64,000 bases of DNA from Halobium salinum (lineage in GTDB: Archaea; Halobacteriota; Halobacteria; Halobacteriales; Haloferacaceae). How positions within the stretch are numbered: the stretch's first letter is position 1; each line of letters starts with the position of its first letter. Below, in pieces: positions 4,914-58,680 of this stretch. A model generated the notes under the pieces. It was not told the origin of the DNA and did no database searches. It worked only from the letters and a program-made list of their open reading frames with translations. Location of the stretch: assembly GCF_026586625.1 (NCBI RefSeq), contig NZ_JAODIW010000008.1, forward strand, positions 93,332 through 157,331. The letters run 5' to 3'. Position numbers and translations under genes: made by a program.

Positions 4914-4977
4914 CTGCGGTCGAACGCGGATAACGGTTTCCGGGCCGTGGACTCACGGATAGGGCCGCTCGCTACCC

Positions 4978-5131
4978 CAACCGCTTCGTCGTCTCGCACC
5001 TCCACGGTGGCAGGTATCGCGCCGATAAACCGGCGCGTCACTGCAACCGCTTCGTCGTCTCGCACCTCCGCGACGGCAGGTCGCTCACAGACGAGACTGC
5101 TAGCTACTGCAGTCGCTTCGTCGTCTCGACC
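4978..5131. repeat. Intergenic direct repeat, about 38 nt x2.5 (caaccgcttcgtcgtctcgcacctccRcgRYggcaggt)
   Basis: Copies at about 4978-5015, 5044-5081 and a partial copy at 5112-5131. They lie between the ABC ATPase gene start and the CBS/ParB gene stop. Confidence 0.5.
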
Positions 5132-14236: not shown

Positions 14237-14698
14237 TTACTGGTAGTCGACCTCCCCTTCACCCTCGCCGATCCACGCGCCACGGTCGGGGTTCCGGGAG
14301 TTGAGCGGGTCGATGTCCTTGTACCACGGTACGTTCTTGAGCTGCTCCTTGTTGTAGACGAACTCGTCTTTCGTGTCCGCGGTGAACTCGAAGTTCTGCG
14401 TGAGCAGGATGGCGTCTACGGGGCAGACCTCCTCACAGAGTCGGCAGTAGATACACTGGCCGATGTGGAGGTTGTACTGTTCGCCGTTGCGCGAGCTGTC
14501 CGTGACGATCTGGATGGTGTCGTTCGGACAGACGTTCTCACACTGGCGACACCAGATGCAGCGCTCCTGGCTGAACTTGTGGACCCCGCGGAACCGGGGG
14601 CTCACCTCGGGTGCGACGTCCGGGTACTCGACCGTGAACGTCTCGCCGTCGAGCGCGTGCTTCAGCGTCGTCGCCATGCCTTTCAAAATTCCGATCAT
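14237..14698 (-). CDS. nuoI: NADH-quinone oxidoreductase subunit I (2x[4Fe-4S] ferredoxin)
   Basis: Internal ATG ([12 protein letters not shown]...) overlaps the nuoH stop (TAATG). Two CxxCxxCxxxCP motifs (CIWCRQCENVCP and CIYCRLCEEVCP). The upstream 260 aa of the long ORF is Arg-rich junk overlapping nuoH. Confidence 0.85.
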   Translation of the reverse strand: MIGILKGMATTLKHALDGETFTVEYPDVAPEVSPRFRGVHKFSQERCIWCRQCENVCPNDTIQIVTDSSRNGEQYNLHIGQCIYCRLCEEVCPVDAILLTQNFEFTADTKDEFVYNKEQLKNVPWYKDIDPLNSRNPDRGAWIGEGEGEVDYQ

Positions 14699-15954
14699 TA
14701 GATGATCACTCCCACGATGATGGCCGTGAGCACCAGGTTGGCGAAGGCGAGTTCGAGCATCCCCTTCCAACCGATTTCGATGAGCTGGTCGATGCGGACG
14801 CGGGGCACCGCCGACCGGCACCACTGGGTGAACAGGAAGAACGCCCAGATTTTGATGACGAACCAGACGAACCCGGGGATGAACCCGAGCGCCGGGACCG
14901 GCGGGGCGGCCCCGCCGAGGAACAGCACGGCCATCAGCGCGCCGCCCAGGAAGATGTGGATGAACTCCCCGAGGTAGAACAGCACGAAGTACACCGAGCT
15001 GTACTCGGTCTGGTACCCGGCGACGATTTCGGTCGGCGCCTCCGGAATGTCGAAGGGGTTCCGGCCGATTTCGGCCATGTTCGCCACGAGGAAGAGGACG
15101 AACGCGAACGGGTTGACGAACGCGAACCACGAGGGGATCGTCAGCGCGCCGGCCTCGATCAGCGGCTGGCTCTGCACGGCGACGATCTCGCTCATCCGCA
15201 GCGTCCCGGTGAAGATGACGACCGACGCGGCCGTCACCACGAGCGGAATCTCGTAGGCGAGGTTCTGCGCGATGGAGCGCAGCCCGCCGAGCATCGAGTA
15301 CTTGTTGTTCGAGGCGTAGCCGGCCATCACGAGGCCGAGCGAGGCGATGGAGGCCGCCGCGAAGGCGAACACCAGCCCCGTCTCGGGGTCGGCCAACTGG
15401 ATGCCGCTTCCCATCGGGATGACCGCGAACCCGAGCAGCGCCGAGAACGGCAGGATGATGGGCGCCAGGTCCCACGCCGGGCGGTCAGCGCCCTCGGGGA
15501 CGATGAGCTCCTTCGACAGGAGCCGGACGGCGTCGGCCACGATGATGAGCAGGCCGAACGGTCCGATACGGTTGACGGCGATGCGGTCCGTGAACGCGGC
15601 GGTAATCTTCCGCTTCGCCCACGGGCCGGCGACGGCCGTCATCGTGAGCATCACGTTGGCAATGAGGAACGCACCCAGCAGCGCGGCGACCGCGTCACCC
15701 CAGATGCCGAAGCCGTCGAGGCCCAGGAGGCCGGAGATGAGGTCCGGGAGCGGCGTCTCGGAGGTCGGCCCGGCGGCGGTCGCGTTGGTCGCGTTGCCGG
15801 CCGTGGCGTTGGTCGCGTTGCCGGCCGTGGCGTTGGTCGCGTTGCCGGCCGTGGCGTTGGTCGCGTTGCCGGCCGTGGCGTTCGTGGCGTTCCCCGTGGC
15901 GTTACCGCTGCCGTTCTGCTGGAGGAGTACCGAGGCGAGGTCGACCCCGCTCAT
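14698..15954 (-). CDS. nuoH: NADH-quinone oxidoreductase subunit H with unusual N-terminal N-A-T sequon tandem-repeat extension
   Basis: Core matches NuoH/ND1 (…[17 protein letters not shown]…, 8 TM segments). The start ATG overlaps the nuoCD stop. The N-terminal roughly 65 aa contain GNATGNATNATAGNATNATAGNATNATAGNATNATAGNATNATAAG. Confidence 0.85.
15781..15910. repeat. 24-nt perfect tandem repeat x4 (gcgttggtcgcgttgccggccgtg) plus degenerate copies, inside the nuoH 5' coding region
   Basis: Read directly from the sequence. On the minus strand it encodes (NATNATAG)n in the nuoH frame. Confidence 0.7.
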
Positions 15955-17678
15955 CGATCGACGCTCCCCAGCACGATGTCGAGGCTACCGAGGGCCGCGA
16001 CGAGGTCGGGGATGTACTCCCCGTTGGACATCGGCGCCAACGTGTGCAGGTTGTTGAAACAGCCGGCGCGAATCTTGAAGCGGGCCGGCGTGTCGGTGCC
16101 GTCCGAACGGATGTACACGCCCATCTCCCCCTTCGCGGCCTCGACGGCCTTGTACGTCTCCGTGTCGTCGTCGGGACGGATGGTCCGCGGCACGTTGCTC
16201 TGGATGGTGCGCTCCTCCTCGGGCCAGTCCTCGAGGAGGTCGATGCACTGCCGGATGATCTTCGCGGACTCCTCGACCTCGCGCAGGCGCACGAGCAGGC
16301 GCGAGTAGTTGTCACAGCCGTCCTCGACGGCCACGTCCCAGTCCAGCTCGTCGTAGTAGCCGTACGGGTCGTCCCGACGGAGGTCCATGTCGATGCCGGA
16401 AGCCCGGGCGACCGGCCCGGTCGCCCCGTACTGCTTCGCGGTCTCCTTCGGGAGCATCCCCTTGCCGACGGTGCGGAGCTGGAGAATCTCGTTCTGCGAG
16501 ATGAGGTCGTGGTACTCCTCCAGCGCGCTCGGGAGCTCGTCGAGGAAGTCGCGCACCTTCTCGAACCACTCCTCGCGGGGTTCGGGGAGGTCCCAGACGA
16601 CCCCGCCGAGCCGGAAGTAGTAGAACATCATCCGCTGCCCGGTGAGGTCCTCGAGAATGTTCTGTACCTTCTCGCGGTCCCGAATCGCGTACATGAAGAT
16701 GGCGGTGAAGTCGCCGTACACGTCGAGCGCGAACGTCCCCACCGCGAGGAAGTGCCCGAGCATCCGGCCGAACTCCGTCGCCATCGTCCGCAGAACCTGT
16801 GCGTACTCCGGCACCTCGAGGTCCGCGAGGTCCTCGATGGCGCGGGCGACCGCCCACTCGTTGGGCATGTTCGCCGTGTAGTCCCACCGGTCGGAGTAGG
16901 GGATGATCTGGTAGCGGTAGGTGCCCTGCTGGGCCATCTGCTCCTCACAGCGGTGGAGGTAGCCGATGTCGGGTTCGACGTCGACGACTTGCTCCCCGTC
17001 GAGGATGGTCTTCAGGTGGAGCACGCCGTGGGTCGCCGGATGGTGCGGCCCGATGTTGAGGTACATCGTATCCGAGTCCGCCGCGTCGTCGACGGCGCCC
17101 GACTCGACCGTGTTCGAGTGTGCGTTGGCACCCGTCCCGGACGCCCGCTGGTCCTCCTCGAGCGGGTTCGCGTGCTCGCGAAGGGTGACGATCTGCGGGC
17201 GGTCCTGGTCGTAGTCGAGCGACAGCGGGTGGCCCTGCCACGTCTCCGGCAGCAGGATGCGCCGCAGGTCCGGATGCCCCTCGTAGTCGATGCCGACGAG
17301 GTCGTACGCCTCGCGCTCGTGCCAGTCGGCCGTCTTGTAGACGGGTTCGGCCGTCTGGGACACCGGGTTCTGTTTCGAGGTGGGGACCACGACGCTGACC
17401 TCGTCCATCGGGTTGTCGTACCGCTTCAGGTGGTAGATGGACTCGTAGCGGTCCTCGTACTCCTGTGCGGTCACACAGGAGAGGAAGTCGTAGCCCGCCT
17501 GGTCGCGCAGGTCGAACAGCACGTCCTGCACCTCGTCCGGGCGGATGACGAACGCCGGCGCGTTCTTGTGGTCGTCACGCGAGAGCGCGCGCTCGCCGAG
17601 CAGGTCGGCGAGTTCGTCCTCGCGGGAACGACCCTCCAGTGCACCCTGTTGTTCCTTCTCCGGGTCTTCGAGGCTCAT
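15951..17678 (-). CDS. nuoCD: NADH-quinone oxidoreductase fused subunits C/D
   Basis: 575 aa. The N-terminal 30-kDa-subunit-like region and the C-terminal 49-kDa-subunit-like region (…[23 protein letters not shown]…) are in one reading frame. ATGA overlap with nuoB. Confidence 0.9.
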
Positions 17679-18376
17679 GGCGAATCAGCCCAGTTGTACC
17701 GCATGACGAGGTCGTCCTCGTTGATCTCCTCCGAGAGCTTGTCGACCACCTCGTCGCGCGGGAGGTCGCCGAACTGCTCCAGTTCGTACGGCTTCACGAC
17801 GACGGGGCTCGACTCGCCGTTGGCGATGCGCTCCTGAAGCTTGGCGATGCCGTAGACGAGCGCCTCGGGGCGGGGCGGGCAGCCGGGGATGTGGATGTCC
17901 ACCGGGATGACCTCCTCCGCACCCTTGATGACGTTGTACCCCTCCTGGAACGGCCCGCCGGAGATGGTACACGAGCCCATGCCGACGACGAACTTCGGCT
18001 CGGGCATCTGGTCGTACACCCGCTTCATCCGCGGGGCGAACTTCGAGACGATGGTCCCCGGGACGATGATGACGTCGGCCTGTCGCGGCGACGCGCGCGG
18101 CACCCCGGCGCCGAAGCGGTCGAGGTCGTGTTTCACCGCGTACGTGTGCATCATCTCGATGCTGCAGCAGGCGATGCCGAACTGCAGCATGAACATCGAC
18201 GACCCCCGCACCCAGTTCATGAACTTGTCGAACTTCGTGAGGATGAACGGAGAGGAGCCGAACGCTTCGCGAAGCTTCGAGTTGAAGCGGTTGTCCTGCC
18301 CCGTAATGCGGGAATCGCGGGTCTCGGTCTGTACTCGTGTGGTGTCTGCGACGAACGTATCTTTGTCGCTGCTCAT
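17675..18376 (-). CDS. nuoB: NADH-quinone oxidoreductase subunit B (20 kDa, [4Fe-4S] N2)
   Basis: Internal ATG at 18374-18376 (MSSDKDTF...) forms an ATGA overlap with the nuoA stop. Conserved ...[11 protein letters not shown]… and …[10 protein letters not shown]… Cys motifs. Confidence 0.85.
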
Positions 18377-18786
18377 GATTCTCCCTCTACTTTCCGGCTG
18401 GTCGCGCGCGGGCTCTTGACCCACTCGACCGCGCCGTTACGCCACGCCCAGACGAGAGGCATAGTCAAGATCCCGATGAAGAGAAGCATCGGGAAGAGAA
18501 CTTTCCCGAGCCCGACGCCGCTCTCCAGTGCGGACCGGTAGATGACGGTCCACGGGAAGATGAGGACGGTCTCGATGTCGAAGATGACGAACAACAGCGC
18601 AACCATGTAGTACTGGATGTTGAACCGGATGCGCGTCGTCCCCGTCGGAATCTCACCGCTCTCGTAGATGGCGCTCTTTCCTTGTTCGGGTACGCTCGGA
18701 CGTAGGATGGCCGACACCGCCATCATCCCTAACGGGATGCCGACCCCCATCACCGCCAGAGCCCCGATGGCTATCCATGGATTCAT
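18373..18786 (-). CDS. nuoA: NADH-quinone oxidoreductase subunit A
   Basis: 137 aa with three TM segments. It is the first gene of the operon and is preceded by an AT-rich promoter region. Confidence 0.85.
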   Translation of the reverse strand: MNPWIAIGALAVMGVGIPLGMMAVSAILRPSVPEQGKSAIYESGEIPTGTTRIRFNIQYYMVALLFVIFDIETVLIFPWTVIYRSALESGVGLGKVLFPMLLFIGILTMPLVWAWRNGAVEWVKSPRATSRKVEGES

Positions 18787-19793: not shown

Positions 19794-21047
19794 TCAGTCG
19801 GTCCGGAACGTCATCCGGTCGCGAACCTCCCGCGCCCGAGCGAGCAGGTCGTCGCGGGCGCTCTCGTCCTCCGGGTCGGCGTCGGCCGTCGCCGTGATGT
19901 GGCCCATCTTCCGGAGCGGGCGGGCCTCGCGCTTGCCGTACCAGTGGAGGCTGACGTTCTCGGCGGCGAGCGCGGCGTCGACACCCCGGAGTTCCGCCGT
20001 TGTGGGCTCCTCCACGTCGCCGAGGATGTTCGCCGAGACCGTCGGGGCACGCAGGGCGGTCGACCCGAGCGGCCAGCCGAGCACCGCGCGGACGTGCTGT
20101 TCGAACTGGGAGGTTCGGGCGCCCTCGATGGTCCAGTGCCCGGAGTTGTGCGGGCGCGGGGCGATTTCGTTGACCAGAATCTCGCCGTCGCTGTCTCGCG
20201 GGCCTCGCCCGCTCGACGTTCCCGAGCCGCGTTGTGGCTCGCACTCGAACAGTTCGATGCCGAACACCCCCCGACCGTCGAGCACGGCGAGCACGTCCTC
20301 GGCGACTTCGTGGGCGCGCTCTGCGACCGCGTCGCTCGTCCGGGCGGGGGCCACGGTCTCGCGCAGAATCTCCGCCTCGTGCACGTTCTCCCCGAGCGGG
20401 AACTGTCGGGTCCCGTTCTCGCCGCGGACGCCGACCACCGACACCTCGCGTTCGAAGTCGATCAGTTCCTCGGCGACCGCGGGGGCGTTTCCGATGTCGG
20501 CGAGCGCGGCCTCCGGGTCGTCGCCGGGCTCGACCGGAACGTTCCCCCGACCGTCGTAGCCGCCGGTGCGGGCCTTGAGCATGACGCCGCCGGACGGCGC
20601 GAACGCCTCGAGCGCCTCCCGGAGGTCGTCGGCGTCGTCGACGCGGCGGTAGCGGGGGACGGGCACGCCCGCCTCGTCGAGCGTCTGTTTCTCGAGGAGC
20701 TTGTCGCCGGTCGTCCGGAGCGCCTCGGGAGAGGGGTGGACCGGGACGTCGTACTCCTCGCGCACGCTCGCGAGCAGGTCGGGGTCCGCGAGCTCGATTT
20801 CGAACGTCAGGGCGTCGACGCGCTCGGCCAGCGACCGGACGGCGTCCGCGTCGTCGAACGCCCCGGCGACGGCGTCGGCGACCCGTCCCGCCGGCGGCTC
20901 CGGCGTCGGGTCCAGCACGACCACGTCGACTCCGAGCGGCGACGCCGCCTCGGCGAGCATCCGCCCGAGCTGGCCGCCGCCGACCACGCCGAGGGTCGGA
21001 CCGGGTACGGATATCGTCACGCGCGACGGTACCGGACGAACCTGCAT
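19794..21047 (-). CDS. purK: N5-carboxyaminoimidazole ribonucleotide synthase (ATP-grasp)
   Basis: …TLGVVGGGQLGRMLAEAA… at the N-terminus and ATP-grasp motifs (…ELIDFEREVSVVGVRGENG…). Internal ATG at 21045-21047 chosen because the upstream roughly 100 aa of the long ORF is Arg/Ser-rich and overlaps the tandem-repeat region. Confidence 0.8.
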   Translation of the reverse strand: MQVRPVPSRVTISVPGPTLGVVGGGQLGRMLAEAASPLGVDVVVLDPTPEPPAGRVADAVAGAFDDADAVRSLAERVDALTFEIELADPDLLASVREEYDVPVHPSPEALRTTGDKLLEKQTLDEAGVPVPRYRRVDDADDLREALEAFAPSGGVMLKARTGGYDGRGNVPVEPGDDPEAALADIGNAPAVAEELIDFEREVSVVGVRGENGTRQFPLGENVHEAEILRETVAPARTSDAVAERAHEVAEDVLAVLDGRGVFGIELFECEPQRGSGTSSGRGPRDSDGEILVNEIAPRPHNSGHWTIEGARTSQFEQHVRAVLGWPLGSTALRAPTVSANILGDVEEPTTAELRGVDAALAAENVSLHWYGKREARPLRKMGHITATADADPEDESARDDLLARAREVRDRMTFRTD

Positions 21048-21120
21048 AAGAGTTGCCGTCGGCGACCACTCGATATGCACGTCAATGCATACACTGCAGC
21101 CTGAAGCAGCGACGGCTCTG

Positions 21121-21300
21121 ACGGAACCGAACCGGTTCCGAGTGGACTCCGGACCGGCCCCGACCAGAACCGACACCGACTCCGGCTCCGAATCGGCTTC
21201 GGGCCGGCTCCGAACCAACTCCGAATCGGCTTCGGGCCGGCTCCGAACCAACTCCGAATCGACTTCGGACCGACTCCGACCGACTTCGGACCGACTACGC
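21121..21300. repeat. Intergenic tandem repeat (about 33-36 nt unit ccgaatcggcttcgggccggctccgaaccaact, about 3 copies) rich in small hairpins
   Basis: Two perfect unit copies at about 21186-21251 then diverged copies through about 21300, plus the palindrome GGAACCGaACCGGTTCC at 21122-21139. Each unit contains CCGAA-tcggc-TTCGG. Confidence 0.6.
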
Positions 21301-23340
21301 CGACGCCGCCCGCCGCGCCGCGACCGCCGAGGGCCGAACGACGTCGGCCGCTCCGGGAGCGGTAGCCACACTCCCGGGAGCGCCGATTACACCCCCGGAG
21401 ATGGACTGGCGGCCGTCGTCGGGAGCGTCGCGGTCGGTCCGCGTCGACGCCCGCAACGCGGACCGGTCGACGAAGATTACGACGTGCTCCCCCCAGAGCT
21501 TGAACCGGTGTTCACGCTTCTCGTACCCCGGGAGGTGCGGTTCGATATCCGACGCGTTCCACCGGTAGGCGACCACGACCGGCGGGGCGTCGTCGAGCAC
21601 CGCCGCGGTCGAGGCGTTCGGGTGCGAACTCGTCACGTTCGCGCCGTAGGATTCGAAGTACCACGGGATCGGGAGCCGGCTGTGCCAGGCGGGACCGCCG
21701 GGTGGCATCCGCTGGAGGCTGGATTCGTCTTTCACGTAGAACAGCGCGTCACTCATGTCGGACCGGTCGCAGGCTCCACCCGCGGGGTTGCAGGTGCCGA
21801 AGAACAGCACGTCCTCGCCCGGGTTGGTCCGGGAGACGCGCTCGACGTCCGCCAGCGTCTCCTTCAGGTCGTTCTCGGGCTGGGCCCACTGGAGTAGCTC
21901 CTTCTGGTCCTCGCTCGCGGCGTTCACGTAGGTCGCGTTGGCGCCGACGACCCCGACCATCGCGGCGAGAACGACGAGTGCGGCGATACCGGTGCCGACC
22001 GCGTCGTCGACGGAGAGCGAACGCCGGGCGACCCGGTAGACGTACCCGCCGCCGACGCCCGCCGGGATGGCGAAGGCGACGACGACGTGCACCGCGGCCC
22101 ACGGCGCCTGGATGTCGGTCGCGATGGGGTAGCCGACGAGCGAGGCGACGCCCCAGTACATCGAGAACGCGACGAGGTCGCGCGGGCGGTCCTCGCCGTA
22201 CCCGTCGGCGACGAACCCGATGAGCGCGAACACCAGCAGGACGCCGGAGCCGTACACGAGCGTCTCGACCAGGTCCTTCGCGTAGGGCGCGTAGTCGTGG
22301 CTCTGGTGGGTCCCGGACGCCCACGTCGAGTAGAACTTCTCCCACGAGCCGACGGTCGCCGTCTCGAACACCCCGGGCAACTGCGTGGGGTTCGCGAGCG
22401 CCGTCCACAGCTCCGGGCGCGGGGCGTAGAAGAAGACAGTGACCGCGAGGAACGCGAGCACGGCCCCGACGGAGTAGACGCCGACGAGGCCGACGCCCGT
22501 CCACAGGTCGCCGGCCCACGCCGACAGCCGGCGCCTCGTCCGCCGGAGTTCGCCCGCGAGGACGGCCCTGACGTTCAGGAGCGGCTCCGTCTCGGATTCG
22601 GCCTCCCCACCCCAGTCCGCGTCCGCGCTCGGGCCGGCGTCCTCGCCTCCGTCCGGAACCGACGGCGGGGTCGATTCGGCAGCGTGGGTCGGGGACCGAC
22701 GTGACTCCGACGCCGACCTCGCCTCGCGCGTGCGTCGGACGAGGTAGTGGTCGAAGAGGAGGACGCCCGCGCCGGCGAAACAGGCCAAGTAGAGCAGGCC
22801 GTTCTCCTTCGCCGCGAGGCCGGTCGCGAAGGCGGCGCCCGCCGGGACGAAGTAGGCGGGGTTGCGCCGGTCGATGCCGCGGACGACGAAGCCGAGCGCG
22901 AACACGGAGAACACGGCGACGATGACGTCGCTGCGCATGAACCGCGAGTAGTAGACGAGCAGGGGGTCGGCGGCGAGAAACAGCGAGAGCGCGACCGTCT
23001 CGGCATTTCTGAGCCGGTCACGGAAGAGGAGGGCGGCGAGGGGGAACAGCCCACCGACGACCGCGACGACGAGGCGGGCGCTGAAGTCGGTCGGCGGGAG
23101 GACCGTGAACACGTAGTCGTTGACGACCGGGAGGAAGGGTCCGTGGATGATGGGTCGGTAGAAGAACTCCCCGTTCTCGTGGTACCGGAGAATCCAGTAG
23201 CCGACCCGACCTTCGTCCCAGTGCATGACTCGCGCGCCGAGGCCGACGAGGCGGACGGCGAGGGCGAGTGCGGCCACCGCGAGCACCCCGAGTGCGGTCG
23301 CATCGAGGCCGCCGCGGGAGCCGACTCCGTCGGTTCGCAT
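21295..23340 (-). CDS. Multi-pass membrane glycosyltransferase, GT-C fold (PMT_2/ArnT-like; TIGR03663/Agl23- or AglS-type)
   Basis: ATG at 23338-23340 (MRTDGVGSRGGLDATALGVLAVAALALAV…). First-loop HWDEGRVGY matches the GT-C DE-type motif. At least 10 TM segments and a large C-terminal soluble domain. The upstream 290 aa of the 973 aa ORF is Arg-rich junk. Confidence 0.55.
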   Translation of the reverse strand: MRTDGVGSRGGLDATALGVLAVAALALAVRLVGLGARVMHWDEGRVGYWILRYHENGEFFYRPIIHGPFLPVVNDYVFTVLPPTDFSARLVVAVVGGLFPLAALLFRDRLRNAETVALSLFLAADPLLVYYSRFMRSDVIVAVFSVFALGFVVRGIDRRNPAYFVPAGAAFATGLAAKENGLLYLACFAGAGVLLFDHYLVRRTREARSASESRRSPTHAAESTPPSVPDGGEDAGPSADADWGGEAESETEPLLNVRAVLAGELRRTRRRLSAWAGDLWTGVGLVGVYSVGAVLAFLAVTVFFYAPRPELWTALANPTQLPGVFETATVGSWEKFYSTWASGTHQSHDYAPYAKDLVETLVYGSGVLLVFALIGFVADGYGEDRPRDLVAFSMYWGVASLVGYPIATDIQAPWAAVHVVVAFAIPAGVGGGYVYRVARRSLSVDDAVGTGIAALVVLAAMVGVVGANATYVNAASEDQKELLQWAQPENDLKETLADVERVSRTNPGEDVLFFGTCNPAGGACDRSDMSDALFYVKDESSLQRMPPGGPAWHSRLPIPWYFESYGANVTSSHPNASTAAVLDDAPPVVVAYRWNASDIEPHLPGYEKREHRFKLWGEHVVIFVDRSALRASTRTDRDAPDDGRQSISGGVIGAPGSVATAPGAADVVRPSAVAARRAASA

Positions 23341-23504
23341 ACCCGGTACCTCCGGACCGACGACTACAACTCTTGTGCTCTGCGTCGGCGAGAGCGGACG
23401 GGGATGCGCCTCCGACACCGTCGCGTCGCGCAGACCGCCGTAGCGGCCTCGGACGGCGCTTAGCCGGTGCATAGTAAACCCCGACGCGCCGGAACCGTCG
23501 GTGC

Positions 23505-24143
23505 ATGCGAAGACGCCGCCTCCTCGGAGCCCTCGGCGCACTCGTCGGACTGGCCGGCTGTGGTGCCGGTACCGACGGTGGGTCGACGGTCCACACCGTC
23601 GGCCCGAACGCGACGAGCGACACCGACGAGGGCGCCGCCGACGCCGGCGCCGAAGGGACGACTGCGGACACGACCGCCACCGCGACCGGGACGGACGGGT
23701 CGAGTGGGACAGACGAGACGAGTGGGACGGGCGAATCGAGCGGGACGAACGGGACCGGCGGCGCGGGCACGGGTGACGGGTCGGCTTCCGACGGCGCCGC
23801 TGGTGCGAGCGGGAACGGAACGGGGAACGGAACGGGCGGAGGCGGACCCGACGAGAGCGGCGGCGGCCCCGGGAACGGCTCGGGGAGCGGTGCAGGCGGG
23901 GGCCCGAACGGCACCGGTGCCGGAGGCGGTACCCGGACCGGGGCGAACGGGACCGGCGCCGCCGACGGTGGTGGGACGAACAACGGGACGACGGGCGACC
24001 GGGCGCTCGGCAACGGGACGAGCGACGGAACAGTCGGCAACGGAACGGCCGGTAACGGAACTGGGGGCACCGCCGGAGGGAACGGGACCGGGGACCGGAG
24101 CGAAGACGACACCGGGAACGGCTCGAGCGGCGGCGCGTTCTAG
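23505..24143 (+). CDS. Tat-secreted lipoprotein, G/T/N/D-rich low complexity with about 15 N-x-T/S sequons
   Basis: Twin-arginine plus lipobox: MRRRRLLGALGALVGLAGC. The remainder is ...NGTGGAGTGDGS…NGTGNGTGGGG…NGSGSG…NGTGAGGG…NGTGAADGGGTNNGTTGD…NGTSDGTVGNGTAGNGTGGTAGGNGTGD…NGSSGG. Confidence 0.6.
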   Translation: MRRRRLLGALGALVGLAGCGAGTDGGSTVHTVGPNATSDTDEGAADAGAEGTTADTTATATGTDGSSGTDETSGTGESSGTNGTGGAGTGDGSASDGAAGASGNGTGNGTGGGGPDESGGGPGNGSGSGAGGGPNGTGAGGGTRTGANGTGAADGGGTNNGTTGDRALGNGTSDGTVGNGTAGNGTGGTAGGNGTGDRSEDDTGNGSSGGAF

Positions 24144-35249: not shown

Positions 35250-35942
35250 TCAGTCGCCCCCGAGCAGGTCCACCAGCGTCCGGAGCGTCCCGAGGTCGTA
35301 CTGGCCCGGCGCGGTGGCGTCGGCCGGGTCGACCGGCGCGTAGCCGATTCGCGACCCGTAGACGGGGGCGACGGCGCGGGTGTGCCGTCCCGGCTCCCCC
35401 ATCGCCATCGTGGCCGGCGTCCCGCCGTCGGCCGCGACCGCGTAGGTCGCCTGCAACAGCGCGAGCGCGTCGCCGCGGTCGGTCGCCGTCGTCGCGAGCT
35501 TCCCCACGTCGCCGGCGTCGCAGGCGGCCGAGAGCTGTTCGCGGAGCGCGTCGGGACGCGCCGTCCCCTCGAAGTCGTGGACCGAGGCGACGACGGCGAC
35601 GCCCGACTCCCGGGCGTGCTCGCGCAGCGCGTCCGCCTCCGCCGCGTCGACGCCGCCCCGTCCCTCGAAGCAGGCCGCTTCGACGTCGACCGCCTCGACG
35701 GCGTCGTGGTCGACCGCCTCGGCGAGGACGGCGAGTCGCCCCTCGTCGTCGGCCTCGCCGCCCTCCCACGTCGCCCGGTTGGTCGCGAGAAGCGGCAGCG
35801 TCCCGTCGTAGTCGTCGAGCGCCGCGAGCGGGTCGTCCGCGAGGTCCATTCGGAACTCCACGGCGTCAGCGTCGTCGCGGGCGGCGGCCTCGTCGTCGAG
35901 GTCCGCCGTCGAGGCCGCGAGCACGAACGAATCGAACTCCAT
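35250..35942 (-). CDS. aroD: 3-dehydroquinate dehydratase, type I
   Basis: MEFDSFVLAASTADLDD…VEFRMDL…LLATNRATWEGG… matches the AroD type I pattern. Internal ATG used. Confidence 0.8.
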   Translation of the reverse strand: MEFDSFVLAASTADLDDEAAARDDADAVEFRMDLADDPLAALDDYDGTLPLLATNRATWEGGEADDEGRLAVLAEAVDHDAVEAVDVEAACFEGRGGVDAAEADALREHARESGVAVVASVHDFEGTARPDALREQLSAACDAGDVGKLATTATDRGDALALLQATYAVAADGGTPATMAMGEPGRHTRAVAPVYGSRIGYAPVDPADATAPGQYDLGTLRTLVDLLGGD

Positions 35943-36002
35943 AGTCCGACCTCCGGCGCCGGCGACAAAACGCTGTCTCACCCGCGCGGACGAAGCGCCG
36001 GC

Positions 36003-36150
36003 GCGGGACGGGGTGGGAAGCGGGGAAGAAGGAAAAGAGAAGAGCGGAGGGAATGGGAGGAAAGCGGACAGGGAGGAGAGCAGAGGGGAGGAAAGCGGAC
36101 AGGGAGGAGAGCAGAGGGGAGGAGAGCAGAGGAGAGGAAAACGGAGGGGA
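36003..36150. repeat. Polypurine (GA-rich) tract with a 31-nt direct repeat (ggaaagcggacagggaggagagcagagggga x2)
   Basis: Seen directly in the sequence. Lies between the MTase gene 3' end and the aroD 5' end. On the transcribed (minus) strand it is a CT-rich tract. Confidence 0.5.
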
Positions 36151-36161
36151 TACCGGGCGCG

Positions 36162-53276: not shown

Positions 53277-53948
53277 TCAGTTCGCGGTCGTGTTGCCGGC
53301 CGTCGAATTACCCATCGTCTCGTTGCCCATCGTCGTGTTTCCGGTCGCGTTGCCGCCCGAGAGGTTCCCCTCGTCGCCGGCCGTCTGTGCGACGTCGCCG
53401 TCGAGGTTGACCGTGTAGTTCGTCACTTCGGCCATCTGGGCCTCCTCGAACACGACGTCGAAGTCCCAGGACTCTCCCGTCGGGAGGCCGGCGGTCTGGG
53501 CCTCCTCGGTTTCGTCGACGAACTCGTAGAGGACCTCACCTTGGTCGTCCTGGAGCGTGACCTCGGCTTCGACGGTCTCGTAGGCCTGCTCACCGGTGTT
53601 CTCGACCGTCCCGCGGAGACCGACCTCGCCGTTGGTCTGGTAGAGTTCACGGGTCGTGACCTCCAGACCCTCGGGCGAATCACCGATTTCACCGTCGACG
53701 TCGACGACGTCGCCGTCGGTCCCTGCGGCACTCTCGTTGCCGCCGGACTCGTTGCCGGCCATCGACTCGTTACCCGCCATCGACTCGTTGCCGGCGGTCC
53801 CGTTGTCGGTGGCCTCACTACCGCTCTCGTTCTCTGCGGAGGCGTTCTCGCTCCCGCCACCCGACTGTCCGCCACAGCCGGCGAGCGCCATCCCGCCGGC
53901 GACCGCGCCTGCCGTCTTCAGCAGTTTGCGTCGATGCATCACGTCCAC
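53277..53948 (-). CDS. Tat-secreted lipoprotein with sequon-rich (N-E-S / N-x-T) low-complexity termini flanking an acidic globular core
   Basis: RRKLLKTAGAVAGGMALAGC (Tat plus lipobox). The N-terminal region contains …NASAENESGSEATDNGTAGNESMAGNESMAGNESGGNES…. The C-terminus ends …NLSGGNATGNTTMGNETMGNSTAGNTTAN. Confidence 0.55.
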   Translation of the reverse strand: MDVMHRRKLLKTAGAVAGGMALAGCGGQSGGGSENASAENESGSEATDNGTAGNESMAGNESMAGNESGGNESAAGTDGDVVDVDGEIGDSPEGLEVTTRELYQTNGEVGLRGTVENTGEQAYETVEAEVTLQDDQGEVLYEFVDETEEAQTAGLPTGESWDFDVVFEEAQMAEVTNYTVNLDGDVAQTAGDEGNLSGGNATGNTTMGNETMGNSTAGNTTAN

Positions 53949-57337: not shown

Positions 57338-57483
57338 ACCCGGAGGTGCGCCGGGCCGACCTAATACGTTGTGTTCCTGTCCGCTCCGGGGCCGACGCGC
57401 GTCTGACACCCCCGTCGGCTCCCCCTCGGCGCCGCTACCTCGAGCCGCGTGAGATTTATACGATTGTATGACTGTCTCCGATT

Positions 57484-58680
57484 ATGGATAGAATTCGGGC
57501 ACTGCTGTCGGGCACTCGTCGGTTGGTGACCGTCGCGGCCGTCCTCGTCCTCGTCGCCGCCGGCGTGGCGGTGGCGACGGGCGTCTTCGGCGCCCCGTCG
57601 GTGGCGGGCGTCGACAACCGTTTCGGCCCCGTCGACGACGAGACGACCGCCGTCGAGACCGACCTCCACGTGTCGAACCCGAACCCACTCGGCGTGTCGT
57701 TCGGGGACGCGACGGTCGACTACGCGGTGTCGATGAACGGGGTCGGGATGGCCGAAGGGACGAAGTCGGGCGTCGCGCTCGACCGCGGAGCGTCGACCCT
57801 CGCCTTTCGCACCGACATGCACAACGAGCGCATCCCCGACTGGTGGGTGAGCCACGTCCGAAACGACGAGCGGACGACGCTGACCGTCGACGCGTCGGTC
57901 TCCTCGCCCCTCCTCGGCGGAGCGGGCGTCGACGCGCCGGCGGTCGAGCGCGAGGTCGAAACGGACCTCGTCGGCGGGTTCGCCTCGAACGAGACGCGGC
58001 CGGTGAACGCGAGCCGGCCGCTCGTCTCGGACCCCGTCCTCTACGTCAACGAGACCGACGCCGCGTGGGGCGAGGTGAACGACTCCGCGACGCCCATCGA
58101 CACGAACTTCACGCTCTACAACCCGAAGCCGGTCCCCGTCGCGCTGACGGAGGTCGGCTACACCGTGACGATGAACGACGTGACCGTCGGCCAGGGGGCA
58201 TCCGACCGCACGTACGTCGTCCCGAGCGGGGAGGCTCGCACGCTGGAGACGACGACGCGAATCGACAACTCGGAGCTCGACGAGTGGTGGGTCAGCCACC
58301 TCCAGCGGAACCAGACCACCGACCTCCGCATCGAGTTCTACGCGACGCTCCGAGTCGGCGGCGACTCGATTCGCGTCCCGCTGGACTCGCTGACCTACGA
58401 GAAGACGTTCGAGACGGACGTGTTCGGGACGAAGGCCGACGGGGGCGAGGTCGCGAACGCGAGTGGAGGGTCGACGACCGCGACCACCACGGCGACCGAC
58501 GGCGAGTCGGGGTCCGAGGGGACGACGGGTACGACGGCCGGCGGGTCGACGACGACCGCGACCACCACGACCGACGCCGGCGGTCTGTTCGGAGGCGGCG
58601 ACGGGAACGGGAGCGCCGGCGACGGCGGCGGACCGGGGACGACCACGACCGACGACGGCCTGCTCGGCCTCCGGTCGTAG
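57484..58680 (+). CDS. Signal-anchored LEA_2 (LEA14/WHy-like) tandem-domain protein with Thr/Gly-rich C-tail
   Basis: N-terminal TM anchor, then two repeats of the LEA_2-type pattern (…DLHVSNPNPLGVSFGDATVDYAVSMNGVGMAEG… and …NFTLYNPKPVPVALTEVGYTVTMNDVTVGQGAS…). C-terminal …GGSTTATTTATDGESGSEGTTGTTAGGSTTTATTTTD…. Confidence 0.6.
   Translation: MDRIRALLSGTRRLVTVAAVLVLVAAGVAVATGVFGAPSVAGVDNRFGPVDDETTAVETDLHVSNPNPLGVSFGDATVDYAVSMNGVGMAEGTKSGVALDRGASTLAFRTDMHNERIPDWWVSHVRNDERTTLTVDASVSSPLLGGAGVDAPAVEREVETDLVGGFASNETRPVNASRPLVSDPVLYVNETDAAWGEVNDSATPIDTNFTLYNPKPVPVALTEVGYTVTMNDVTVGQGASDRTYVVPSGEARTLETTTRIDNSELDEWWVSHLQRNQTTDLRIEFYATLRVGGDSIRVPLDSLTYEKTFETDVFGTKADGGEVANASGGSTTATTTATDGESGSEGTTGTTAGGSTTTATTTTDAGGLFGGGDGNGSAGDGGGPGTTTTDDGLLGLRS

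Follow-up and report, generated by a model that had tools for sequence, protein, structure and literature searches.

A perfect 24-nucleotide tandem repeat encodes a sequon-rich N-terminal tail, predicted to face outward, on the NuoH subunit of Halobium salinum

Introduction

The nuoH gene of the haloarchaeon Halobium salinum, which encodes subunit H of a complex-I-like respiratory enzyme, contains in its 5' coding region a perfect tandem repeat that specifies a dense run of N-glycosylation sequons (N-X-S/T). This locus raises the question of whether such a tract is truly part of the NuoH protein, on which side of the membrane it would lie, and whether it may carry glycans. We analyzed the gene within a 64-kb window (positions 93,332 to 157,331 of contig NZ_JAODIW010000008.1; coordinates below count from the first base of this stretch). 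A first-pass annotation made from the DNA alone had described the repeat as a glycosylation array grafted onto the N terminus of NuoH. The array itself was borne out by our analysis. It does not stand alone, as sequon-rich inserts recur at one hot spot in several members of the Haloferacaceae. The H. salinum tail is the most expanded case that we found of this recurrent, fast-turnover insert.

Results

The nuoH repeat encodes a dense array of N-glycosylation sequons

The unit gcgttggtcgcgttgccggccgtg is present in four head-to-tail copies without a mismatch at positions 15782-15877. The first-pass annotation had recognized these four copies and had placed them one base too low, at 15781-15876. 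Tandem Repeats Finder (TRF) embedded the perfect run in a wider degenerate array at 15774-15903 (period 24, 5.5 copies, 93% matches), whose score of 211 was the highest in the window. The chance expectation for a perfect run of this kind in 64 kb is approximately 1e-37. The unit length is a multiple of three and the copies follow one another head to tail, so the repeat is an in-frame coding minisatellite. The codon table confirmed that it is read in the nuoH frame, where it encodes (NATNATAG)n, with the segment to residue 59 closing as (NATNATAG)3NATNAT.

Residues 14-59 of NuoH contain 12 N-X-S/T sequons in which X is not Pro. Eleven of these are NAT and one is NGS, exceeding the "at least 9 N-A-T sequons" noted previously. 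All 12 Asn residues of the array fall within N-x-S/T, compared to 2.9 expected on shuffling. Counted up to the PWAKRK anchor, the NuoH tail comprises 110 residues versus 46 in Haloferax NuoH, a difference of 64 residues. When the array peptide (53 aa) was searched alone against 5.8 billion proteins, no scored match was obtained, and 2601 candidates shared short words with it. Scanning of metagenome DNA with a degenerate NATNATAGNATNAT pattern returned 0 matches, and a QQNGSGNA-based pattern returned two unrelated chance matches only.

The repeat-bearing gene encodes a NuoH/ND1-family subunit

The nuoH product is 100% identical to the NCBI entry "NADH-quinone oxidoreductase subunit H [Halobium salinum]," which has PF00146 on record. 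In phmmer searches against the PDB, residues ~90-415 of the query matched NdhA (E = 1.2e-62), NuoH of 8qby (E = 1.7e-60), and Nqo8 (E = 1.5e-52). The best solved-structure matches were those of cyanobacterial NdhA, which fits the view that haloarchaeal Nuo works without NuoEFG and possibly does not oxidize NADH (PMC8305020). An alignment of chloroplast NdhA with Haloferax NuoH reached residue 7. Among NCBIfam models, the best was the bacterial equivalog NF004741, which fell narrowly short with 295.3 bits against a cut-off of 305, and H. salinum NuoH scored well under the cut-offs of the other NuoH and FpoH models. The gene lies in an operon with the order nuoB-nuoCD-nuoH-nuoI, all on the minus strand (Table 1). 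Judged by PF00146, full-length homology, and the operon, the product is a bona fide NuoH/ND1-family subunit.

One competing open reading frame (ORF) on the plus strand, 14956-16308, also spans the repeat. Such antisense ORFs are usual in a genome of 69% GC, and we rejected this one because the minus strand there is taken by nuoH and nuoCD, whose G+C content at third codon positions (GC3) is 0.93-0.95.

The tail is very likely translated from the upstream ATG

The nuoH start codon overlaps the nuoCD stop codon in an ATGA, as had been claimed, and relatives keep an ATGA or TGATG overlap at the same junction. This overlap suggests translational coupling of nuoH to nuoCD. Between codon 1 and codon 101 of nuoH, we found no in-frame ATG, GTG, or TTG, and the sole downstream in-frame start candidates, V101, M102, and M105, fall inside the first transmembrane helix (TM1). 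The GC3 of codons 1-87 is 0.97, like that of the rest of the gene. Conserved protein motifs flank the array on both sides. Upstream, an N-terminal ...(V/L)LLQ(S/Q) motif is kept across genera, and downstream, (T/P)LP(D/E)xIxxLLGLxG is kept in nearly all haloarchaeal NuoH proteins. Due to the lack of an alternative start, the ATGA overlap, the GC3, and the conserved flanking motifs, we consider translation of the tail from the upstream ATG to be very likely on sequence grounds.

Two other readings of the N terminus were rejected. Initiation at the "MLTMTAV" methionines, which the first-pass annotation had raised as an alternative, was looked at in the sequence. These codons sit inside TM1, and starts at 101, 102, or 105 would delete half of TM1 together with the conserved pre-TM1 motif. 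A signal-peptide reading of residues 1-13 was likewise discarded, as no K, R, or H occurs before residue 114 and the sole hydrophobic run is VLL (residues 9-11).

The N-terminal tail is predicted to be disordered and to face outward

Solved NuoH, Nqo8, and NdhA chains align only from query residues 86-98 onward, and everything before this point is thus N-terminal tail ahead of TM1. In structures of complex I, the loop between the first two transmembrane helices (the TMH1-2 loop) faces the peripheral arm, which would place the N terminus on the outer side. The charge pattern of H. salinum NuoH points the same way. Residues 1-113 contain no K, R, or H, with the first basic residue at position 114. 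The tail (residues 1-87) has no K/R and five D/E, and the loop (residues 107-124) has four K/R. From this charge distribution and the homology to solved NuoH/Nqo8/NdhA, the NuoH N-tail is predicted to face outward, in line with the first-pass proposal.

The first 52 residues of Escherichia coli NuoH cover TMH1 and part of the TMH1-2 loop, and the quinone cavity is formed by NuoH with the cytoplasmic subunits NuoB and NuoD (PMC8357420). A literature search turned up no paper stating outright on which side the NuoH N terminus lies, and we base the outward orientation on homology, the E. coli structure paper (PMC8357420), and the general architecture of complex I. The last sequon, N57, sits approximately 27 residues ahead of TM1. 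As a computational prediction, the sequons would therefore be exposed on the extracellular face and far enough from the membrane.

In the AlphaFold2 (AF2) model, the predicted local distance difference test (pLDDT) score stays under 50 across almost the whole of residues 1-64, which is consistent with a disordered tail in this segment of the model. The 10-residue blocks 71-80 and 81-90 average a pLDDT of 87-88.

Sequon-rich inserts recur at a hot spot in NuoH of several Haloferacaceae

We compared the N-tails of the 120 best NuoH homologs and of 80 Halobacteria genome loci, the latter set composed of genomes from outside Halobium. Most Halobacteria, including Haloferax, Halorubrum, Haloarcula, Halobacterium, and Natronomonas, have approximately 20 to 25 residues before TM1 and no tail sequon. 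In a subset of Haloferacaceae, an insert lies exactly between the LLQ and PLPDxI motifs. The Haloplanus insert GTPTPTGTANATANASASG (also given as TPTGTANATANAS) has two sequons, the NGT...NGTANAT insert of the uncultured lineages P0005 and P0006 has three, the P0059 insert GNATGNATNATAGG has three, and that of P0069 has seven. Inserts of P0056, P0065, P0120, and Salinirarus also contain sequons. Halopelagius has poly-Gly at the hot spot, and in a few lineages the insert is of G/S type and lacks Asn. In the A/T/S/G-rich inserts, the Asn residues that fall within N-x-S/T number 12/12, 7/8, 4/4, 3/3, 3/3, and 2/2 by lineage. The X residue, the residue at +2, and the spacing vary between lineages (NAT, NAS, NGT, and NST), and the sequon is kept.

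In a rough neighbor-joining tree of the NuoH core, sequon-bearing tails appeared in at least six places among close relatives without them, and this interleaved placement points to fast gain and loss of inserts. Among 113 distant NuoH representatives, the median length before TM1 was 21 residues, and none had a sequon-dense low-complexity tail.

As a separate observation, the N-tail of the metagenome NuoH relative P0105, MSAASAFAGAADAPLAFAGAADAPLQLLPD, has a direct 10-residue repeat, AFAGAADAPL, at the hot spot and no sequons. The hot spot thus tolerates repeats of unrelated sequence.

Array length and unit composition differ within the Halobium clade

The first-pass annotation had suggested comparing the 5' ends of nuoH in related genomes for repeat copy number, and lengths do differ. 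A metagenome sister of H. salinum NuoH (P0002/P0003, 383 aa) has one unit, no array, and four sequons. In a DNA alignment, this sister allele has a gap of ~94 nt opposite the H. salinum copies. Because the sister allele lacks the array, the expansion appears to be recent in H. salinum.

In Halobium palmae, the contig that bears nuoCD stops inside nuoH with MNGADLVAILLQQSGNGSGNATANGTANGTANATTAANGTANG, which is built of ANGT/ANAT units and has six complete sequons. This tract, also written NGSGNATANGTANGTANATTAANGTANG..., is an NGT/NAT array at the same place as that of H. salinum. Contig JBHSWU010000197 (L088 3112-3240) ends with ...NATTAANGTANG, and JBHSWU010000069 (L001 1-60) starts with ...PTPLPDAI. 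H. palmae carries an array of its own, distinct from that of H. salinum. The break in the draft assembly lies in this array, and NCBI therefore marks the H. palmae NuoH as "partial." The three Halobium-clade lineages thus differ in length and unit composition while the sequon character stays.

Glycosylation context of the window and of haloarchaea

The sequon array would best be read as a target of N-glycosylation by AglB. The glycoproteome of Haloferax volcanii shows AglB at work on N-X-S/T sites on the cell exterior, including those of proteins with multiple transmembrane segments (PMC8241124). An Asn-Ala-Ser sequon of the Halobacterium cell-surface glycoprotein is N-glycosylated, according to the title of reference 43 of PMC8241124. 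An Agl23 homolog is encoded approximately 5 kb from nuoH (Table 1). As cited in PMC11407970, Lu et al. 2020 described Agl23 as acting on lipid-linked intermediates of haloarchaeal glycosylation. The ORF of this homolog as listed runs upstream to 24216, and its 5' part is Arg-rich and probably spurious. A search of a literature library found no paper naming Halobium salinum.

When the ORFs of the window were scanned for at least four sequons within 30 residues, only three qualified, the NuoH tail and two ORFs with RR...LAGC signals of the twin-arginine translocation (Tat)/lipobox type. These signals indicate that the two other sequon-dense ORFs are exported. Within the window, sequon-dense low complexity thus appears to be confined to segments predicted to be exported.

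One of the two (53277-53948, minus strand, 223 aa) has the Tat/lipobox signal RRKLL...LAGC and an FxLYD domain flanked by the sequon-rich tracts NESMAGNESMAGNESGGNES... and GNATGNTTMGNETMGNSTAGNTTAN. TRF detected an 18-nt repeat at 53746-53795 in this ORF. The other (23505-24143, plus strand, 212 aa) is lipoprotein-like, starts with MRRRRLLGALGALVGLAGC, is G/T/N-rich with many NGT/NGS sequons, and has no family match. It is antisense to the 5' extension of the Agl23 ORF, and its GC3 of 0.82 weakly favors the plus frame.

Table 1. Features of the H. salinum nuoH locus and its neighborhood in the 64-kb window
Feature	Position	Strand	Basis or remark
nuoI	14237-14698	-	operon neighbor of nuoH
nuoH coding sequence, complex-I-like subunit H, 418 aa	14698..15954	-	ORF; GC3 0.95
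WAKRK, start of TM1-TM2 loop; first basic residues, positive-inside marker	15607..15621	-	sequence
TM1, ~codons 84-108	15631..15705	-	hydropathy peak at 88-106 (Kyte-Doolittle); AF2 helix 84-108
Pre-TM1 motif, codons 68-81; predicted short helices 69-76 and 79-82	15712..15753	-	conservation and AF2
Sequon array, NGS + 11 x NAT, low-complexity N/A/T/G, codons 14-59	15778..15915	-	codon table
Perfect 24-nt tandem repeat, 4.2 copies, 101 nt	15782..15882	.	coding-strand unit AACGCCACGGCCGGCAACGCGACC = NATAGNAT
N-terminal motif, codons 1-13; LLQ(S/Q) core kept across genera	15916..15954	-	120 homologs and 80 genome loci
ATGA overlap; nuoH ATG 15954-15952 shares bases with nuoCD stop TGA 15953-15951	15951..15954	-	sequence read
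nuoCD (fused)	15951-17678	-	directly upstream of nuoH
nuoB	17675-18424	-	operon neighbor of nuoH
Agl23 homolog	21295-23520	-	TIGR03663 "flippase activity-associated protein Agl23," E = 9e-112, 374 bits (cut-off 126)

Discussion

We consider it probable that H. salinum NuoH has an extracellular, disordered N-tail made longer by the recent expansion of an in-frame minisatellite and that several sequons of this tail are glycosylated by AglB. Under this explanation, replication slippage or unequal recombination would be the most likely cause of the growth of the 24-nt minisatellite near the 5' end of the nuoH coding sequence, at a low-complexity insertion hot spot bounded by the LLQ motif on one side and the PLPDxI pre-TM1 helix on the other. 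The resulting NuoH protein would have an N-tail of ~85 residues, uncharged to acidic and intrinsically disordered, with 12 sequons, and this tail would be translated from the nuoCD-coupled ATG. TM1 would insert with its N terminus out, carrying the tail to the outer face of the membrane, where it would become a substrate of the archaeal oligosaccharyltransferase AglB and most likely receive several N-glycans. The catalytic core of NuoH would remain unchanged, and the tail would be an accessory, rapidly evolving surface appendage. In this scheme, we infer the outward topology (from homology and charge), the glycosylation, and the slippage mechanism.

Several points weigh against glycosylation of an extracellular tail. 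An N-tail of 87 residues must pass the membrane without a signal peptide. Within the 64-kb window, to which the search was limited, we found no WWDxG-type motif and did not locate AglB. No Nuo subunit is among the Hfx. volcanii glycoproteins (PMC8241124), a result that fits the sequon-free tail of Haloferax NuoH. Where Asn residues stand only three positions apart (i and i+3), occupancy of neighboring sequons may be partial. The poly-Gly, sequon-free G/S, or absent inserts of other lineages suggest that a glycan is not needed for NuoH function, and the hot spot appears to tolerate neutral low-complexity growth. Furthermore, internal duplication inflates the shuffle tests for sequon bias, whose P values per lineage run from <0.0002 to ~0.07, and shared ancestry leaves the lineages short of full independence.

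Neutral growth of low-complexity sequence is the alternative to which we give the most weight, and we regard it as the less likely explanation. The tail would still be translated and outside, but the array would be a mere product of slippage in a linker that tolerates such growth, glycosylation would be missing or incidental, and there would be no selected role. Its NAT content would reflect duplication of a unit that chanced to encode NAT. The perfect copies, which speak for an event so recent that selection has had no time to act, are in keeping with this account, as are the poly-Gly, G/S-rich, or missing inserts at the hot spot in other lineages, the gain and loss of inserts among close relatives (P0005/P0006 versus Salinigranum-type tails), and the unchanged NuoH core. 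However, Asn is nearly always accompanied by S/T at +2 in lineages with different units (NAT, NAS, NGT, and NST), and the H. palmae array is built from ANGT/ANAT units rather than from the H. salinum unit. Other sequon-dense tracts in the window also occur only in exported lipoproteins. Moreover, on an outside tail in a cell that has AglB, unstructured N-x-T sites would be expected to be modified whether they are selected or not.

Two further accounts seem to us very improbable. The extension might be missing from mature NuoH, through a downstream start (V101, M102, or M105) or removal of a signal peptide. The short pre-TM1 tails of most Halobacteria and of the 113 distant NuoH proteins would fit such a loss, as would the tendency of automated gene calls to pick long ORFs. 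Against it stand the location of starts 101, 102, and 105 inside TM1, the lack of any start in codons 2-100, the conservation across genera of an LLQ motif upstream of the array, the ATGA coupling, and the GC3 of 0.97. The first 13 residues also have no basic n-region and a short hydrophobic stretch only, unlike a Sec or Tat signal. We see an equally slight chance that collapse or expansion during assembly produced the number of copies or their perfect identity. Tandem repeats are error-prone in short-read assemblies, and the H. palmae draft is broken in its array. However, the 101-nt perfect run of H. salinum is shorter than a typical read and has unique flanks and an intact frame. Two contigs of different size (197 kb and 1.1 Mb) also encode the same 418-aa product, and this agreement gives modest support to the repeat copy number. 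Even a wrong copy number would leave the array real, as the relatives show.

A stronger version of the glycosylated-tail explanation, which we think unlikely, is that the N-tail is a selected, hypervariable, glycan-bearing surface appendage whose length and sequon number are tuned by slippage under diversifying pressure. Such an appendage might form a glycan brush between the membrane and the S-layer that stabilizes the complex in brine, or it might alternatively be a surface epitope that haloviruses exploit or avoid. If this version were true, a respiratory-complex subunit would belong to the variable cell-surface glycome.

Comparison with known systems indicates what is new in the H. salinum tail. 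From TM1 onward, the core is homologous over its full length to canonical NuoH/ND1/Nqo8/NdhA proteins (PF00146; E = 1e-52 to 1e-62), whereas the pre-TM1 tail, at ~85 residues, differs from the median of 21 in the 113 distant representatives. The G/A/T/S and N-x-T/S composition and the predicted extracellular site are shared with exported haloarchaeal proteins such as the S-layer glycoprotein, pilins, and lipoproteins. In contrast to these, the H. salinum tract lies at the N terminus of a polytopic respiratory subunit, has no signal peptide, and is a perfect minisatellite. NuoH proteins of Haloplanus, H. palmae, and uncultured Haloferacaceae have the same arrangement of LLQ, variable sequon insert, PLP(D/E)xI, and TM1. 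These relatives have one to seven resolved sequons in degenerate units, compared to 12 sequons and 4.2 identical copies in H. salinum, the largest array seen. Thus, the novelty would lie in a sequon-rich tract, in the form of a perfect repeat, on a polytopic respiratory subunit that lacks a signal peptide, and no new mechanism would be involved.

Two more distant likenesses are leads only. In E. coli proteins of the ProW type, a long N-tail with few basic residues passes through the membrane before TM1 without a signal peptide. Engineered tandem DQNAT "GlycoTags" use short sequons as multi-site acceptors on an unstructured tail. Both differ from the H. salinum array, which is natural, in organism, machinery, and origin.

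If the tail is glycosylated, H. salinum would have a complex-I-type membrane subunit with a dense N-glycan array, for which there is no counterpart in the Hfx. volcanii glycoproteome (PMC8241124), and a core bioenergetic enzyme would join the fast-evolving haloarchaeal surface glycome. The tail is also expected to be invisible to trypsin-based proteomics, because residues 1-113 offer no K/R for cleavage. The resulting glycopeptide would exceed 110 residues and go unnoticed in standard workflows. The nuoH hot spot breaks draft assemblies, as in H. palmae. The natural (NATNATAG)n tail might find use in archaeal glycoengineering as a tag that offers several acceptor sites. Current views of complex I catalysis are unchanged by the tail.

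Other repeats in the window

Further repeat regions were observed in the window. Nested tandem repeats with periods of 11, 22, and 33 nt lie at 21182-21304, with the 33-nt unit present in 2.8 copies (95% matches). They are located at the junction of the 3' end of the Agl23 homolog and the 5' extension of a purK ORF (19794-21386), in which the purK match begins only at residue ~125. At 4967-5128, a 66-nt unit is repeated 2.5 times with 75% matches between two minus-strand ORFs. Stop codons interrupt three of the six frames there, and this region may represent intergenic repeat elements. Purine-rich tandem repeats, GGGAGGAAAGC..., with periods of 15, 31, and 46, occur at 36037-36150 near the end of a minus-strand ORF (35250-36161). 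Finally, a 78-nt repeat of 2.4 copies at 58472-58659 encodes the low-complexity, Thr/Gly-rich C-terminal part, with NAS/NGS sequons, of a 402-aa plus-strand ORF (57472-58680). This ORF has no NCBIfam match, contains NET, NAS, NDS, and NFT sites, and is probably another surface protein.

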